In this document: positions 3,121-36,555 of the stretch, piece by piece
Layout: each line of letters opens with the position of its first letter
Position numbering within the stretch: position 1 is the first letter of the stretch
Source of the DNA: Candidatus Microgenomates bacterium
Lineage (GTDB): Bacteria > Patescibacteriota > Microgenomatia > JACQLA01
Length of the DNA: 64,000 nt
Assembly (NCBI GenBank): GCA_016204255.1
Contig: JACQLA010000003.1
Location: forward strand, 106,255-170,254
Reading direction: 5' to 3'
The notes under the pieces: model-generated
What the model was told of the DNA's origin: nothing
What the model saw: only the letters and a program-made list of their open reading frames with translations
Databases searched by the model: none
Position numbers and translations under genes: made by a program

Positions 3121-4308
3121 ATGCCGGATGAAGCTTATCAAAAAGCACCTACACCTTCCGATGAAGCCGAACGCTTAGCCTCCCTTTATGAGCTAAAAAT
3201 TCTCAACACTCCTCCGGAGGAACGCTTTGATCAAATCACTAAAATTGCCACCCATTTGTTTAACGTCCCCATCTCCACATTAACATTGGTTGACTCGGAA
3301 CGGGAATGGTTTAAATCGTGCCAGGGTTTATCAAGTAGCGAAGGCGCACGGGCGATTTCTTTTTGCGGACACACGATTCTTACTGACGAGATATTCATCA
3401 TCCCCGATGCCCTGAAAGACCCGCGATTTGCCGGAAATCCGATGGTTGTGGGCGAACCATATATTAGGTTTTATGCCGGCGCGCCCCTACACGCGGCAGA
3501 CGGTAAAAGAGTCGGAGCATTTTGCATCAAAGATCGTAAACCCCGTAAAATGTCCCCTACTGAAATAGACTTATTAAAATCACTTTCCGCTTGGGCAGAA
3601 CTTGAGTTAAATTCGCAGGAACTCAGCCTAGCCCTGGAATCGCGTAAAAAGGCGGAGACTAAAGTAATTGAACTCAATGCAGCCCTACGTCTTCTTAATA
3701 AGATTTTAAGACATGATGTTTTAAATGACCTAACCGTAGTAAAAGGGTTTATCGAACTCTATGTTGAAGGCAAGGGCGGGATGGAAAAGATACAGGCCGC
3801 AATTAACGCCGTTGAACGGGGCATTAGACTGATTGAGCAAGTTAAAGCCCTTGAAAGTGCGATTTCAACCGGTAAACCCCTACAAGTTTATGAATTAGAT
3901 ACAATTTTAAAACGCATTATCAATCTATTTCCCGCCATTCAATTTCACATCGACGGTAACGGTCAGGTTTTAGCCGATGAAGCATTGGATTCGGTAATTG
4001 AAAACATCGTTTTCAATGCCCAAATACATGGAAAAACAAAAAAAGTTGATTTTATAATCTCGGAAAAAAATAATTTTATAGAGATCAAAATTGCCGACTA
4101 TGGAATTGGAATTCCCTCAGAAGTTAAGGAGAAATTATTTACGGAAGGGTTTAAATATGGCGAAGCCGGACATACTGGCCTAGGTCTTTACATTGTCAAA
4201 AAAACTTTAGAGCGATATGGAGGAGATATTACAATCGAAGACAATAAACCAAGCGGCACAATATTTATTCTCACATTACGAAAATCTCCTTCCAATGCGC
4301 AAAAATAA
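3121..4308 (+). CDS. Cytoplasmic GAF-domain sensor histidine kinase
   Basis: 395-aa ORF. N-terminal GAF-like region, helical linker, H-box-like ILRHDVLNDL, HATPase N/G boxes (ENIVFNAQIHG, DYGIGIP, GHTGLGLYIVK). No TM segment. Confidence 0.8.
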   Translation: MPDEAYQKAPTPSDEAERLASLYELKILNTPPEERFDQITKIATHLFNVPISTLTLVDSEREWFKSCQGLSSSEGARAISFCGHTILTDEIFIIPDALKDPRFAGNPMVVGEPYIRFYAGAPLHAADGKRVGAFCIKDRKPRKMSPTEIDLLKSLSAWAELELNSQELSLALESRKKAETKVIELNAALRLLNKILRHDVLNDLTVVKGFIELYVEGKGGMEKIQAAINAVERGIRLIEQVKALESAISTGKPLQVYELDTILKRIINLFPAIQFHIDGNGQVLADEALDSVIENIVFNAQIHGKTKKVDFIISEKNNFIEIKIADYGIGIPSEVKEKLFTEGFKYGEAGHTGLGLYIVKKTLERYGGDITIEDNKPSGTIFILTLRKSPSNAQK

Positions 4309-7923: not shown

Positions 7924-7973
7924 ACCGGGATTATATCAAAAAGAGGGAAGATATACAAACTATAGGTCTTTTG

Positions 7974-8048
7974 GGTGATGTACCGGATTCGAACCGGCAA
8001 CCTTCAGATTCACAGTCTGATGCTCTAACCAGTTGAGCTAACATCACC
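7974..8048 (-). tRNA. tRNA-His (GTG) with encoded G-1
   Basis: Hand-folded cloverleaf: G-1 opposite C73, acceptor GUGAUGU/ACAUCAC, D stem GCUC/GAGC, anticodon arm UCAGA-CUGUGAA-UCUGA, T arm GCCGG-UUCGAAU-CCGGU. Confidence 0.9.
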
Positions 8049-8492
8049 ATATAATTTCAAAACTTTCTTAGCCCATTGTACGATATCTTCAACCCGTGCG
8101 CCAGTAGGTTGCAATTTTGTCCAAAGTTCTAAGTTTTCGATTCTGTTATCATTTCGCGCCCCGTTTTTATGATGAACACTTTCAAAAGGTAGCAAATATC
8201 TACCTAACTTTTGTTCAAGTATAAGGCGGTGCTCAAATACTCTCCCGCTCTTATCAGCAAATGGGTGAGCCCTGTAATAAACATACAAATATCCTCTTTT
8301 ATCTACATGCCTCCTATTAGAGTAGGGATATTGCTTGCTTTGATAATAACATAGTTTACAAACTCTTGATTTCCTCTGTTTTAATCGTCCACACGCGCAA
8401 GGTCGTTTTCCCAATTGCCCCCTGCATTTGGGACATAATCGATGCCGGCTGGATGCTACATATCTCCTTTTACATTTATTGCACTCTTTCAT
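8025..8492 (-). CDS. HNH endonuclease with N-terminal Cys-rich zinc ribbon
   Basis: Track ORF 8025-8564. Likely start is M25 (ATG 8492, MKECNKCKRRY...). Several CxxC pairs, then an HNH_3-type motif SVHHKNGARNDNRIENLELW. The last 8 codons and the TAG stop lie inside the tRNA-His gene. Confidence 0.8.
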   Translation of the reverse strand: MKECNKCKRRYVASSRHRLCPKCRGQLGKRPCACGRLKQRKSRVCKLCYYQSKQYPYSNRRHVDKRGYLYVYYRAHPFADKSGRVFEHRLILEQKLGRYLLPFESVHHKNGARNDNRIENLELWTKLQPTGARVEDIVQWAKKVLKLYGDVSSTG

Positions 8493-8671
8493 AAAAACTA
8501 TGATAACAATTTGTGGAGTTGTTGTCAATTTATTTTTTAAAATAACTATGATATATATCTCCACAAGATATGAATTCCAAAATTCTCTTTCTCAATTCTT
8601 ACAACGCGCTTATGTAAATTTTAATTTCATAAACTATTCTTTTAAAAAGAAAGGAGGATAATATAGGCATT

Positions 8672-9470: not shown

Positions 9471-9546
9471 TGGTGCGCCTGGAGGGAATCGAACCCCCAA
9501 CCTACTCCTTAGAAGGGAGTTGCTCTATCCGTTAAGCTACAGGCGC
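9471..9546 (-). tRNA. tRNA-Arg (TCT), CCA encoded
   Basis: Cloverleaf: acceptor GCGCCUG/CAGGCGC, anticodon arm ACUCC-CUUCUAA-GGAGU, T loop UUCGAUU, 3' ACCA. Confidence 0.9.
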
Positions 9547-9657: not shown

Positions 9658-10128
9658 ATGGAAAAACTTAGAACTTACACACCAGAAATTATAAGCCCTG
9701 CAGTAGTGGAAGAGTTTAAAGATTTTATCAATATTCTTTATCGCGCAACCTCTCATCCTGATAATCCGCGAGTTAAGGGGTTTAAAGACGGCTCCAACTG
9801 CCAACGTTTTGCAGTTGACGTTTTACGGGGTTGCGGTTTTACGATTCCTCATTTACGCTCTTTAGAACTCTGGCAAGATAATCCATATACATATTTGGCG
9901 GATCAGCCGGAAAAATATGATTTGGTTTTCTTCACGCCAGACTGGGAAACCGATATGCGATTTGCCCATGTTGGTGTGATAGCCGAAGTAAATAACGAAG
10001 GTAACTTTTGGGTAATTCATAATTCAAAAGAGGTGGGACGATCAAAAATCTGGTCCCTTAATCGTTTTGCGCAAACCGACCGCTATCGGGTTTTAAGAGG
10101 AATAAAGCGACCAGCTAGACTCGGTTAA
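9658..10128 (+). CDS. NlpC/P60-family (papain-like) hydrolase, cytoplasmic
   Basis: 156 aa. Order Cys (GSNCQRFA), then YDLVFF...FAHVGVIAEV, then WVIHNS, matching the C...H...H pattern and GDLVFF/HVGIY/IHA context of NlpC/P60. Confidence 0.65.
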   Translation: MEKLRTYTPEIISPAVVEEFKDFINILYRATSHPDNPRVKGFKDGSNCQRFAVDVLRGCGFTIPHLRSLELWQDNPYTYLADQPEKYDLVFFTPDWETDMRFAHVGVIAEVNNEGNFWVIHNSKEVGRSKIWSLNRFAQTDRYRVLRGIKRPARLG

Positions 10129-13315: not shown

Positions 13316-13389
13316 TGGAGCGGGATACGGGAGTCGAACCCGTCTCTCCACCTTGGAAGGGTGGCATTGAACCGCTCAACTAATCCCGC
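13316..13389 (-). tRNA. tRNA-Gly (TCC), CCA encoded
   Basis: Cloverleaf: acceptor GCGGGAU/AUCCCGC, anticodon arm CCACC-CUUCCAA-GGUGG, T arm ACGGG-UUCGACU-CCCGU, 3' UCCA. Confidence 0.9.
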
Positions 13390-13917: not shown

Positions 13918-14898
13918 TTATTTAGCAGTATAAGGAAAAATTAAGGTTGCATTACTATAACTTGTAATTACCTCTTTATTGGAGGGAGTAAGATTGTTTA
14001 AATCTCCCGCTTCAACTTTTACGATGTAAGGATATTTAACCCCCGGTGTTGTTGTTGCCCAACCGGTATCCGTTGAGTTAACAGAGTTAGGAAACAAATC
14101 CCATCCACCACTTTCATTTTGTTGATAGAATTTAAATGGCGCGAGGAATAATGCCTTTTCATTCTTATCATCATAGTTAAAATTACTGTCTTTATTAGCA
14201 TCTTCAAAGGCAAAAACCGAAATATGAAAATTCATTTCTTGTCTTTTTTCAAAACCAACCACAGCAAAATTATTTTTTTCTGAAACAATGATTGGTTTTG
14301 TAGTAGGGTAATAATCCTTAGTTGGCATTGGATTAATTACCAACTGATGGGGTTCACTGACCTGAATTAGGGCGGAAGCCCAACCTGATTCAGTTGAGTT
14401 AATTTTATTAAGAGGTGTGCTGGAAAAAGGGGAGTCATAAATATTTACTGGCATAAATCCTAAAGCATTATCATCCGGCTCGCGAACTCCATTCCCATTG
14501 TGATCTTCAAATGCAAATATCTGAACGGGGATACTCTTTTTACCAGTAGTCTCACCCAATACCTGAGCTTTTACCGATTTAACGATCAAATCAAACGGTA
14601 TACCGCTTTTCAATGTCAGAAATATTGAACCACCTTTGTCTGCTGGTTTGGTGGGCGGACTGGTGGGAGTAGTTGAGGGTTTTTTTGTAATTTGTGGCGG
14701 ATTTTGCGGAATTGACTGACTTTTTCCCAAGATAAAATAATAAGCGCCCGTGCCCGCCGTGATAGAAAAAATTAAAAGGACTGCAATAATTATAATCTTT
14801 TTAAAAGAGCTGGATTGTTTTACTGGAACAATAGGTTGCTCAAGAGGGGAAGATGATTGCAGAGGTTGGGCTTGCTGATTTGTATTTTCTATTTCCAT
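13918..14898 (-). CDS. Membrane-anchored secreted protein with two SdrD-B/Cna-B-like repeats
   Basis: Track ORF extends to 14976 but its first 26 codons overlap a tRNA-like 3' half. ATG 14898 (MEIENTNQQ) is preferred. TM anchor, Pro/Thr linker, duplicated FAFEDxNxxxxxxxDD modules. Confidence 0.6.
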   Translation of the reverse strand: MEIENTNQQAQPLQSSSPLEQPIVPVKQSSSFKKIIIIAVLLIFSITAGTGAYYFILGKSQSIPQNPPQITKKPSTTPTSPPTKPADKGGSIFLTLKSGIPFDLIVKSVKAQVLGETTGKKSIPVQIFAFEDHNGNGVREPDDNALGFMPVNIYDSPFSSTPLNKINSTESGWASALIQVSEPHQLVINPMPTKDYYPTTKPIIVSEKNNFAVVGFEKRQEMNFHISVFAFEDANKDSNFNYDDKNEKALFLAPFKFYQQNESGGWDLFPNSVNSTDTGWATTTPGVKYPYIVKVEAGDLNNLTPSNKEVITSYSNATLIFPYTAK

Positions 14899-14951
14899 AC
14901 TATTTATTATTACAAGGAAAAAATACAAATGCAAGAGGAACCAGAAATCAG

Positions 14952-14986
14952 TCGGGGTGGCGGGAATTGAACCCACTGCTTCTCGG
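14952..14986 (-). other. 3' half of split tRNA-like gene X (anticodon-stem 3' strand, variable loop, T arm, acceptor 3' strand, A73)
   Basis: Reads CCGAG-AAGCA-GUGGG-UUCAAUU-CCCGC-CACCCCG-A. Pairs 5/5 and 7/7 with the 5' half at 15129-15158. Confidence 0.55.
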
Positions 14987-15040
14987 TCACTAAAAATTGC
15001 GAGTCAACTTTCAGTGTAAACCTTCACCCAGAAAAATCTG

Positions 15041-15113
15041 TCGGGGATACCCGATTTGAACGGGTGGCCTCTCGCTCCCAAAGCGAGCGCTCTAGCCGCT
15101 GAGCTAATCCCCG
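15041..15113 (-). tRNA. tRNA-Pro (TGG)
   Basis: Cloverleaf: CGGGGAU-UA-GCUC-AGCGGCUA-GAGC-G-CUCGC-UUUGGGA-GCGAG-AGGCC-ACCCG-UUCAAAU-CGGGU-AUCCCCG-A (73 nt). Confidence 0.9.
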
Positions 15114-15128
15114 ATTTTTAAGGGCAAA

Positions 15129-15158
15129 CCGAGCGTTCTACCGATGAACTACACCCCG
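15129..15158 (-). other. 5' half of split tRNA-like gene X (acceptor 5' strand, D arm, anticodon-stem 5' strand)
   Basis: Reads CGGGGUG-UA-GUUC-AUCGGUA-GAAC-G-CUCGG. U8, GG in the D loop and a 4-bp D stem are all canonical. Confidence 0.55.
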
Positions 15159-15195
15159 CCGACTGCCAAGGAATTTGACGCTCAGCTACTTTTTG

Positions 15196-15280
15196 TGCCG
15201 GGGGCGGGACTCGAACCCGCACGACTTATGCAGCCAAAAGATTTTAAGTCTTTCGTGTATACCGATTTCACCACCCCGGC
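15196..15280 (-). tRNA. tRNA-Leu (TAA), class II
   Basis: GCCGGGG-UG-GUG-AAAUCGGUAUA-CAC-G-AAAGA-CUUAAAA-UCUUU, long variable arm, GCGGG-UUCGAGU-CCCGC-CCCCGGC-A. Confidence 0.9.
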
Positions 15281-15354
15281 AAAAAATAATCCCTCGTGCC
15301 TGCCTTGTCGAAGCCTCCGGCGAAGGCAGGTCTACCAGTTCCACCACCGCGGCG
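15281..15354 (-). other. tRNA-Leu-like 5' fragment Z (acceptor/D-arm-like start, 8-bp hairpin, no T arm)
   Basis: Reads GCCGCGGUGGUGGAACUGGUAGAC (Leu-type 5' end), then CCUGCCUU-CGCCGGAGGCUUCGAC-AAGGCAGG, then GCACGAGGGAUUAUUUUUU. No T arm or acceptor 3' strand follows. Confidence 0.4.
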
Positions 15355-15472
15355 CAAAAGATTTGACGCGATCCAGTTGATCGCTAGTTCGCCTTTGGCG
15401 AAGAAATCTTTCGTGCTTGCCCCGTTAATTGCAAAGCAATTTTACGGGGTATACCGATTTCACCACCCCGGC
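15355..15472 (-). pseudogene. 5' fragment Y of tRNA-Leu(TAA) (positions 1 to about 45) with hairpin insertions in the D loop and anticodon loop
   Basis: Identical to the intact gene over GCCGGGGUGGUGAAAUCGGUAUA, CACGAAAGA and AAAUCUUUUG. Interrupted by a 34-nt hairpin (15415-15448) and a 39-nt double hairpin (15365-15403). Lacks variable arm, T arm and acceptor 3' strand. Confidence 0.6.
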
Positions 15473-15511
15473 CCGCCTAGACCCGCGTCGACGCGAGGCT
15501 AACTACGCCCC
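15473..15511 (-). other. tRNA-like 5' start (GGGGCGUAGUU) fused to a GC-rich palindromic module
   Basis: Reads GGGGCGUAGUU-AGCCUCG-CGUCGACG-CGGGUCUAGGCGGGC. The module shares AGCCUCG...CUAGGCGGG with the insertion at 39813-39844. Confidence 0.3.
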
Positions 15512-15581
15512 TTCCACTCAAATCAGCAGTTTATAGTCTCATTTTACTAAAACCGGAGTATGCTTTCAACAGGAGAGGAAA

Positions 15582-16100
15582 CTACACGCGTGTGGTTTTA
15601 AAAAGAAGATCTTTGGCGTGCTCTTCAATATCAATAAAATCATCGGCCATTTCGCGCAGGTTTCTTGAGGCACTATGGCCAAAAGCCATTACTTCTACCA
15701 AACAACCTAGCGATTGCTGAAGATAATTGACCACCGGGACAAAATCCCCATCGCCACTAATCAAAACTATTGAATCGACTTTAAGACCTAAACGAATTGC
15801 GTCCATGCCAATCCCCAAATCCCAATCACCCTTTTTTGCTCCGCCAGGAAAAACCTGCAGATCCTTTTCCTTAATCTCAAATCCGGCTTCATTAACCGCC
15901 TCAAAAAAGGTTTTCTCTTTTTCCGAAATATCAGTTTTAATCACATAGGCAATAGCCCGCGTTAAAGTACGGTCAGAAACCGCCAATTTCAAAAGATTTT
16001 TAAAATTAATGCGGGAATTGTAAAGGTTTTTAGCCGAGTAATAAAGATTTTGCACATCCACCAAAACCGCTACTCTTTGATTTTTATTTCTTACTATCAT
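15582..16100 (-). CDS. NYN-domain (LabA-like, PIN-like fold) protein
   Basis: 172 aa. RVAVLVDVQNLYYS ... ISGDGDFVPVVNYLQ are the acidic motifs of NYN/LabA ribonuclease-like proteins. Confidence 0.8.
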   Translation of the reverse strand: MIVRNKNQRVAVLVDVQNLYYSAKNLYNSRINFKNLLKLAVSDRTLTRAIAYVIKTDISEKEKTFFEAVNEAGFEIKEKDLQVFPGGAKKGDWDLGIGMDAIRLGLKVDSIVLISGDGDFVPVVNYLQQSLGCLVEVMAFGHSASRNLREMADDFIDIEEHAKDLLFKTTRV

Positions 16101-36431: not shown

Positions 36432-36482
36432 TATATTTAATGATATAACGTCAGTTTTTATTTTTCAAAGAGCAAAATTTAG

Positions 36483-36555
36483 TGCCGAGGCTCAGAGTTG
36501 CACTGAGATCTCATGTTTTTCAGACACGCGCCGTGACTACCTTGGCTACCTCGGC
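36483..36555 (-). tRNA. tRNA-Phe (GAA) with atypical T loop
   Basis: Acceptor GCCGAGG/CCUCGGC, A73, anticodon arm CGUGU-CUGAAAA-ACAUG, T arm CUCAG-UGCAACU-CUGAG (G at position 55). Confidence 0.75.

Follow-up and report, generated by a model that had tools for sequence, protein, structure and literature searches.

Directly upstream of the intact tRNA-Leu(TAA) gene of a bacterial CPR genome, we identified a stack of three tRNA-like fragments (X, Y, and Z) and, downstream of the same gene, a fourth piece of debris (W), which encloses the intact tRNA-Pro(TGG). We demonstrated that these fragments exist, that they are not tRNAs and are unique to the lineage, and that the locus is structurally variable between near-identical genomes, with breakpoints at tRNA genes. 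The debris belongs to two gene types, i.e., a Leu(UAA) type (Y, Z, and the intact tRNA-Leu) and a Pro(UGG) type (X, W, and the intact tRNA-Pro), and one working copy of each type is interleaved with it. We consider it reasonably probable that the four elements have no function, that they are scars left when Leu- and Pro-type tRNA genes were partially duplicated and recombined illegitimately with one another, and that they are discarded after transcription as a leader. All coordinates given here refer to the window, i.e., the whole stretch of 64,000 nucleotides that was analyzed, and the assignment of the host to the bacterial CPR is based on gene content and relatives.

Read on the minus strand, the locus presents, in order, a promoter-like site, X, Y, Z, the intact tRNA-Leu(TAA) (15195..15280, called by ARAGORN and scoring 62 bits with the Rfam tRNA model), and then W enclosing tRNA-Pro(TGG). 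The first-pass annotation had described the stack of incomplete tRNA-like starts upstream of tRNA-Leu(TAA), and both its sequence and its coordinates proved to be as described; the split tRNA W flanking tRNA-Pro(TGG) had been overlooked. Positions 15000–15500 have a GC content of 51–58%, against a background of ~38–40%, and the X-Y-Z stack reaches 55–58% within a genome of ~38–40% GC. The stack is 100% identical in six separate assemblies, i.e., the MAG plus five sequencing runs assembled as Logan contigs, and the agreement among these independent assemblies rules out an assembly artefact. The neighboring ORFs encode NYN, cyclophilin, CorA, DUF192, and proteins of unknown function, and none of the ORFs neighboring the stack is a recombinase, an integrase, or the remnant of an element. 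The protein of the NYN-domain gene adjoining the stack is found in identical form on the MAG GCA_964420235.1 and on Logan contigs from several runs, with Dojkabacteria and Microgenomates MAGs as closest relatives, and a neighboring 326-aa protein is identical to HY439_00865 of 'Candidatus Microgenomates bacterium'.

The promoter-like site (TTGAAA-17-TAAAAT, then TATAAA; 15541..15569, minus strand) matches the consensus at 10 of 12 positions and is a consensus match only. Transcription from it would begin ~20–30 nt upstream of X, and X-Y-Z would then form the 5' leader of the operon. The distance from the −10 element to the first tRNA-like start is similar to that found before tRNA-Leu in a Dojkabacteria locus (L007, with ~17 nt from the −10 element to the tRNA) and before tRNA-Pro in a variant form of the present locus (haplotype B, described below). 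Promoter homology with L007 was rejected, the likeness being merely generic and AT-rich, as was a second promoter immediately 5' of tRNA-Leu, whose predicted start would lie within the tRNA.

Fragment X (15473..15511, minus strand) consists of GGGGCGTAGTT, then of the palindrome AGCCTCGCGTCGACGCGGGTCT, folding into a hairpin of −9.2 kcal/mol, and then of AGGCGG. Its start is of the Pro/W type, since it resembles the first 12 nt of W, with 10 of 11 bases matching the aligned stretch of that gene. Fragment Y (15355..15472, minus strand) corresponds to the 5' two-thirds of tRNA-Leu(TAA), preserved as exact blocks of the intact gene. The first block (15472-15449) is identical to positions 1–24 of the intact tRNA-Leu(TAA) over its 24 nt and is followed, at the 3' end of the D loop, by a 34-nt insert (15448-15415) that folds into a hairpin of −14.9 kcal/mol. 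The second block, ACGAAAGA (8 nt, 15414-15407, positions about 25–33), and the third, AAATCTTTTG (10 nt, 15364-15355, positions about 37–46), are also identical to the intact gene, and they surround an insert of 42 nt (15406-15365) that forms two 6-bp hairpins (−16.0 kcal/mol). This 42-nt stretch takes the place of the CTTA of the anticodon loop, the insertion starting directly after CTT (U34), and only 10 nt of tRNA sequence are left beyond it. Y retains D-arm sequence and an intact anticodon stem. The blocks (24, 8, and 10 nt) are collinear with the intact gene and total 42 nt without substitution. Beyond the first block, the 18-nt collinear exact-match chain observed in the 95 nt that follow was reached by none of 5000 shuffles; the collinear matches are not due to chance. 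The two copies of the 24-nt direct repeat, in Y and in the intact tRNA-Leu, are separated by 168 nt of non-coding DNA.

Fragment Z (15281..15353, minus strand) is a second, divergent 5' fragment of the Leu(TAA) type, and its best matches are tRNA-Leu(TAA) genes of CPR. Its start, GCCGCGGTGGTGGAACTGGTAGAC (15353-15330), matches L026 at 19 of 19 positions and L007 at 22 of 24; Z is closer to these other CPR genes than to the resident intact one, which fits fragments derived from different gene copies. It continues with the stem CCTGC(CTT)/(AA)GGCAGG around a 16-nt insert starting with CGCC (15330-15299, hairpin of −14.3 kcal/mol) and with a tail ending in ATTATTTTTT (15298-15281). Hairpins with a perfect stem of 6 bp or more and a short loop number three in 235 nt, against a shuffle mean of 0.27 (P ~0.001). 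The stems in X, Y, and Z all consist of Watson-Crick pairs only and so offer no sign that selection acts on the RNA. The inserts thus fold into hairpins, as had been claimed, and they are not repeated: no other copy was found in the 64-kb window or in the ~1 Mb of fetched loci, including 11 kb of haplotype B. Within these loci, there is thus no sign of a MITE or any other dispersed repeat, nor of the dispersed repeat family that the first-pass annotation had put forward for checking. The hairpin inserts in the D loop and in the anticodon loops appear as unique GC-rich filler.

ARAGORN, whether or not introns were allowed, called none of the three fragments as a tRNA, and the Rfam tRNA model (E<=10) did not detect them either; we conclude that X, Y, and Z have neither a T arm nor an acceptor 3' strand, as had been stated. 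Z contains a doubtful T-loop-like GGCTTCGA and no recognizable 3' part. No other Rfam family matched the locus beyond the two tRNAs, and, when Rfam 15 was applied at the gathering score, only 13 tRNAs passed. Sub-threshold matches to YrlA and tmRNA are explained by the tRNA-like pieces, and no match to the T-box was credible. Elsewhere in the window, the tRNA-Phe(gaa) gene (36482-36555, minus strand; 55.8 bits with Rfam) presents the T arm CTCAG-TGCAACT-CTGAG instead of the usual GGTTCGAAT-type T loop.

On the other side of tRNA-Leu, W is a complete Pro-type tRNA body broken in its anticodon loop by ~135 nt that contain the whole tRNA-Pro(TGG) gene. Its 5' half (15125..15158, minus strand) comprises the acceptor 5' strand CGGGGTG, the D arm, the anticodon-stem 5' strand CTCGG, and the loop remnant TTTG (CGGGGTG-TA-GTTC...GAAC-G-CTCGG-TTTG), and it is covered by three independent contigs (L002, L003, and L158). 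The insertion (14989..15124, minus strand), located between position 35 and position 36/37, is made of a 12-nt spacer, the intact tRNA-Pro(TGG) (15113-15040, minus strand), a 23-nt spacer, and a 12-bp hairpin (15016-14988); the final C of the first spacer (window position 15113) doubles as the first base of tRNA-Pro. The 3' half follows (about 14951..14988, minus strand), with a loop remnant, stem, variable loop, T arm, acceptor strand, and discriminator A (GA-CCGAG-AAGCA-GTGGG-TTCAATT-CCCGC-CACCCCG-A), and matches the 3' end of a CPR tRNA-Pro(TGG) at 24 of 26 positions. Both junctions, from the 5' half of W to tRNA-Pro and from tRNA-Pro to the 3' half, are confirmed by the independent contig L158. 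When the two halves are joined in silico, with the ~135-nt insert removed, ARAGORN finds a perfect cloverleaf; W as it stands, treated as an intron-containing tRNA, receives no ARAGORN call. All four stems are present, and, the anticodon loop being interrupted by ~135 nt, W is not a canonical cloverleaf. The C1-G72 pair, A73, and what is left of the loop (TTTG..GA) are consistent with a Pro(UGG)-type tRNA, and the D arm also resembles that of phage tRNA-Gly genes; the isotype is probably, though not certainly, Pro(UGG).

The structural variability of the locus was revealed by haplotype B, represented by two contigs from two other runs of the same project (L156 and L157) and by the MAG contig L160 (GCA_964583055.1). 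L156 and L157 are 99.9% identical to the window over 1795 nt, from the first base of tRNA-Pro to tRNA-Gly, a stretch that includes tRNA-Pro, the 3' half of W, the 326-aa gene, DUF192, and tRNA-Gly. L160 has the same upstream gene and tRNA-Pro as these two contigs and ends at the 3' end of tRNA-Pro, the downstream stretch lying outside the contig. In all three contigs, the region upstream of tRNA-Pro is occupied by an unrelated divergent gene and by a promoter-like sequence that differs from that of the window; the 5' half of W, tRNA-Leu, the stack, and NYN are all missing there. The sole two mismatches between haplotype B and the window fall in the D loop of tRNA-Pro, which points to a crossover inside this gene and suggests recombination within a tRNA-Pro gene between the haplotypes. 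The 3' half of W is unchanged in haplotype B, where it stands as an orphan, and W is consequently dispensable there. Judging from these contigs, recombination at this locus takes place within a single species, inside or at tRNA genes. The ends of contigs accumulate at tRNA boundaries, i.e., at the 3' end of tRNA-Leu, in the anticodon stem of W, and at the 3' end of tRNA-Gly. Next to tRNA-Gly(tcc) (13316-13389), all the contigs that cover this side, one from the MAG and four from Logan, stop within a few bases of the 3' end of the gene (13316-13322), which suggests a second variable or repeated junction; the part of the window below 13316 must derive from another contig or assembly. L160 also carries, at 3588-3670, a different tRNA-Leu(TAA) with the loop CTTAAGA (G37), 3.5 kb from the haplotype-B tRNA-Pro. 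Its 5' end is more like Z than is that of the intact gene of the window, and the species may possess two kinds of Leu(UAA) gene.

Beyond this species, the stack has no counterpart in the loci that we compared. Synteny around NYN was examined at 80 genome loci and in three further contigs: NYN is highly conserved but its neighborhood is not, and tRNAs lie nearby only in L007. The stack is absent from the NYN-linked loci of the 29 closest relative genomes screened for tRNAs. L007 holds the only related Leu(TAA)-Pro(TGG) cluster that was recovered, with clean genes and no fragments. In this Dojkabacteria MAG (L007, 4001-4709), a Pro-type tRNA (CGG) directly follows NYN, echoing the NYN...W arrangement of the window, and no tRNA was found downstream of NYN in the other close NYN loci. 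In a screen of 168 tRNA genes (~1 Mb), a duplicate of the 5' part of a tRNA gene lies upstream at this locus only. A search of metagenomes with a 19-nt D-arm pattern retrieved 62 stretches, which are, with few exceptions, ordinary tRNA-Leu genes of various bacteria; none of the 62 contained a second copy or the present inserts, the pattern itself being too widely conserved to be specific. One metagenome stretch, L103, contains a tRNA-Leu(TAA) broken after CTTAAAA, which looks like an integration junction. Synteny of the 326-aa gene was followed in P0135 (72% identity over ~70% of the protein), the only relative of this gene with a fetched neighborhood; there, gyrA lies upstream, and no tRNA was called on the contig.

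These comparisons bear on the proposal of the first-pass annotation that the fragments are more than pseudogene debris. A functional reading would hold that the X-Y-Z leader controls the maturation or the expression of the operon, as a decoy or through acceptor competition, or that W is a nested or split tRNA freed by the excision of tRNA-Pro; we regard it as quite improbable. The tRNA-like GC content of the debris and its hairpin enrichment speak in its favor, as do the intact anticodon stem and D-arm sequence of Y, the perfect complementarity of the W halves around a structured insert (with leader-trailer pairing and the 12-bp hairpin, which includes G-U pairs), and the identity of the sequence in all samples. 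The fold stability of the X-Y-Z leader, however, shows no excess over shuffled sequence (z = −1.19); the whole 581-nt region reaches z = −3.9, a value for which the two genuine tRNAs and W are, in our view, chiefly responsible. The identity of the sequence in all samples stems from a single clone-like population and not from selection, and haplotype B does without the 5' half of W next to tRNA-Pro. With an ordinary leader stability and a stack that is absent in L007 and unique among the 168 tRNA genes, the claim of more than debris found no support, and the absence of the fragments from relatives, together with the rearrangement of haplotype B at tRNA genes, is what recombination scars lead one to expect.

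The same annotation had speculated that Y could use the single downstream 3' half. Y lacks a T arm, and, in the minimum-free-energy fold, the acceptor strands of the intact tRNA-Leu pair locally, in a helix lengthened by flanking U/A pairs; this fold contains no pairing between the 5' strand of Y and the 3' strand of the intact gene, whose own local pairing prevails. The idea therefore found no support. As for W, split and permuted tRNA genes are known in Archaea (PMC3218864), and W resembles the split ones in its separate 5' and 3' halves, in the break in the anticodon loop, and in its structured flanks. It differs from them by its bacterial host, by the absence of a bulge-helix-bulge, by the location of its halves 135 nt apart on one transcript with a tRNA between them, and by the lack of its 5' half in haplotype B. 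Indeed, no 3-4-3 bulge-helix-bulge motif occurs at the W junctions in the predicted structures, which present plain hairpins with internal loops. We know of no bacterial pathway that would join such tRNA halves at these positions. We give very little credence to an actual use of the debris, whether of the leader as a cis decoy or folding competitor tuning tRNA-Leu maturation, or of W as a 'tRNA within a tRNA' that would be excised by RNase P and RNase Z and whose halves would be reassembled or ligated.

A distinct clue to the history of the fragments is the common start of the anticodon-loop inserts of Y and Z. The anticodon stems of the two fragments differ (AAAGA in Y versus CCTGC in Z), and both inserts open right after CTT (U34) with CGCC-NNA-GGC. 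This position-locked agreement is unlikely to arise by chance (~4e-5 by our own estimate). The shared start suggests either that the insert is older than the split between Y and Z or that it moved between genes, and one of these two histories, ancestral insertion or transfer, is probably correct. The insertion sites lie at 34/35 in Y and Z and after G35 in W, and the inserts measure 16, 42, and ~135 nt, the last being mostly a tRNA gene. Group I introns, for their part, possess a conserved catalytic core and extend over ~200 nt or more. They occupy position 34/35 in tRNA-Leu(UAA), and position 35/36 is enriched in, and typical of, Patescibacteria (PMC13011429). Y and Z could on this basis be relics of a tRNA-Leu(UAA) with a group I intron at 34/35, and W of a tRNA with an intron at 35/36, the introns having been mostly deleted or overwritten while intron-less copies took over. 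We judge this unlikely. Host phylum and insertion positions agree with the published introns (PMC13011429), the inserts of Y and Z share their motif after U34 despite the different stems (starts CGCCAAAGGCG and CGCCGGAGGC), and a metagenome tRNA-Leu(TAA), L141, is broken right after CTT, at the 34/35 site, possibly by a group I intron. On the contrary, no Intron_gpI match was obtained within 14850-15650, even at E<=10; the inserts are far below intron size (16–42 nt) or contain a tRNA gene; they end in C, as against the terminal G of group I introns; and the proposed P1-like hairpin has a U-A pair at the splice position and not a U-G pair. Moreover, intron loss leaves unexplained both the D-loop insert and the loss of the 3' thirds, Y and Z having no intact 3' exon.

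Integrative elements provide another conceivable origin. In the classical duplication of an att site, a direct repeat flanks an integrase-encoding element, and it is usually the 3' part of the tRNA gene that is repeated. The fragments could be attachment-site scars, integrases of the anticodon-loop class having inserted repeatedly at tRNA-Leu and tRNA-Pro and the elements having later been deleted, leaving palindrome arms behind. This, too, is improbable in our view, if marginally less so than an intron origin. Partial tRNA genes left by the integration of mobile elements are common in prokaryotes (van der Gulik et al. 2023, PMC9897764); Y, Z, and W are all disrupted in their anticodon loops; the inserts are perfect Watson-Crick palindromes of the kind bound by recombinases; and typical 3'-fragment repeats exist downstream of other Leu(TAA) genes (L109 and L133). 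A variable region and an HNH endonuclease gene also lie a few kb away, beside other tRNAs. As in published integration-derived cases, an exact part of the neighboring intact tRNA is repeated, with a variable junction and a non-functional product. Here, however, the repeats are 5' parts (positions 1–24, about 25–33, and about 37–46) instead of the usual 3' parts, only 168 nt separate the 24-nt copies, neither an integrase nor an element remnant lies between or beside them, and the hairpin inserts are unique. The D-loop insert is inconsistent with a crossover in the anticodon loop, and Y, which is identical to the intact gene, lies upstream of the divergent Z, unlike the order expected from serial integration. 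A phage or viral origin was rejected: blastn gave no match in phage records, viral contigs do not contain the 24-nt Leu 5' block, and a degenerate version of the insert motif returned chance matches only. The D-arm patterns of Z and W do match many viral contigs, or tRNA-Gly genes within viral contigs, because D arms are conserved. No donor of the inserts was found in the window, in the fetched loci, or in the phage records.

Two genes located near other tRNAs of the window were also noted. The ORF 8025-8564 (minus strand) encodes a homing-endonuclease-type HNH_3 domain (Pfam 4.7e-10; PHROG HNH endonuclease 6.9e-30), and its 3' end overlaps the 5' end of tRNA-His (7973-8047, minus strand) by ~23 nt; in this tRNA-rich region, its product could act as a free-standing homing endonuclease, from which breaks and gene conversion might arise. 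The ORF 9658-10128 (plus strand), beside tRNA-Arg(tct) (9471-9546), encodes a lysin-like CHAP-domain protein with weak PHROG tail and endolysin matches; this gene and several functionally unassigned ORFs located between tRNA-Arg and tRNA-Gly may mark a small mobile or phage-derived island.

To account for the whole locus, we favor repeated partial duplication combined with illegitimate or short-homology recombination between these two similar types of tRNA gene, which would have produced three 5' two-thirds fragments upstream of the working tRNA-Leu and, by the same process, one whole Pro-type gene (W) broken in its anticodon loop by a segment carrying the working tRNA-Pro. The order of events and the recombination mechanism are what we infer from the present arrangement. 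If the promoter-like site is active, the fragments would be co-transcribed with the operon as a ~250-nt leader; following established tRNA processing, RNase P would cut at the 5' end of tRNA-Leu and free this leader, which would then be degraded. W, for its part, is unable to mature, its anticodon loop being broken. A partial parallel is offered by the tyrT/rtT repeats of E. coli, in which tRNA segments are reiterated beside a functional gene, are co-transcribed with it, and probably come from unequal recombination. The units of tyrT/rtT are regular, arranged in tandem, and include the tRNA 3' end, whereas the present locus shows no tandem-repeat structure or periodicity and assembles 5' parts from two tRNA types.

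Several observations stand against simple scars. The stack is GC-rich (55–58%) and hairpin-rich (P ~0.001), whereas old neutral debris is expected to drift towards AT; the debris is thus either young or constrained, and its tRNA-like GC content may reflect a recent origin or constraint. Y has two or three structured insertions and yet no substitution in its 42 nt, which is unusual for plain decay, and the first-pass annotation had used this as an argument against decay. The argument is a weak one: 42 matching nt have little power and are compatible with a divergence of several per cent, the probability of no change, (1-d)^42, being still 0.12 at 5% divergence. Finally, no donor has come to light for any insert.

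If the fragments were functional, they would represent the first nested or split tRNA, or the first tRNA-mimic leader, described in bacteria, and a working 'tRNA within a tRNA' in W would be the bacterial counterpart of the archaeal split tRNAs; nothing here favors these possibilities. In practice, the locus is a warning for annotation and assembly, as standard finders overlook a disrupted tRNA of the W kind and assembled contigs break off at such sites. Read as scars, X, Y, Z, and W would constitute a compact record of the duplication, breakage, and replacement of tRNA genes in a reduced CPR genome, in which tRNA genes would serve as recombination breakpoints between co-existing strains.
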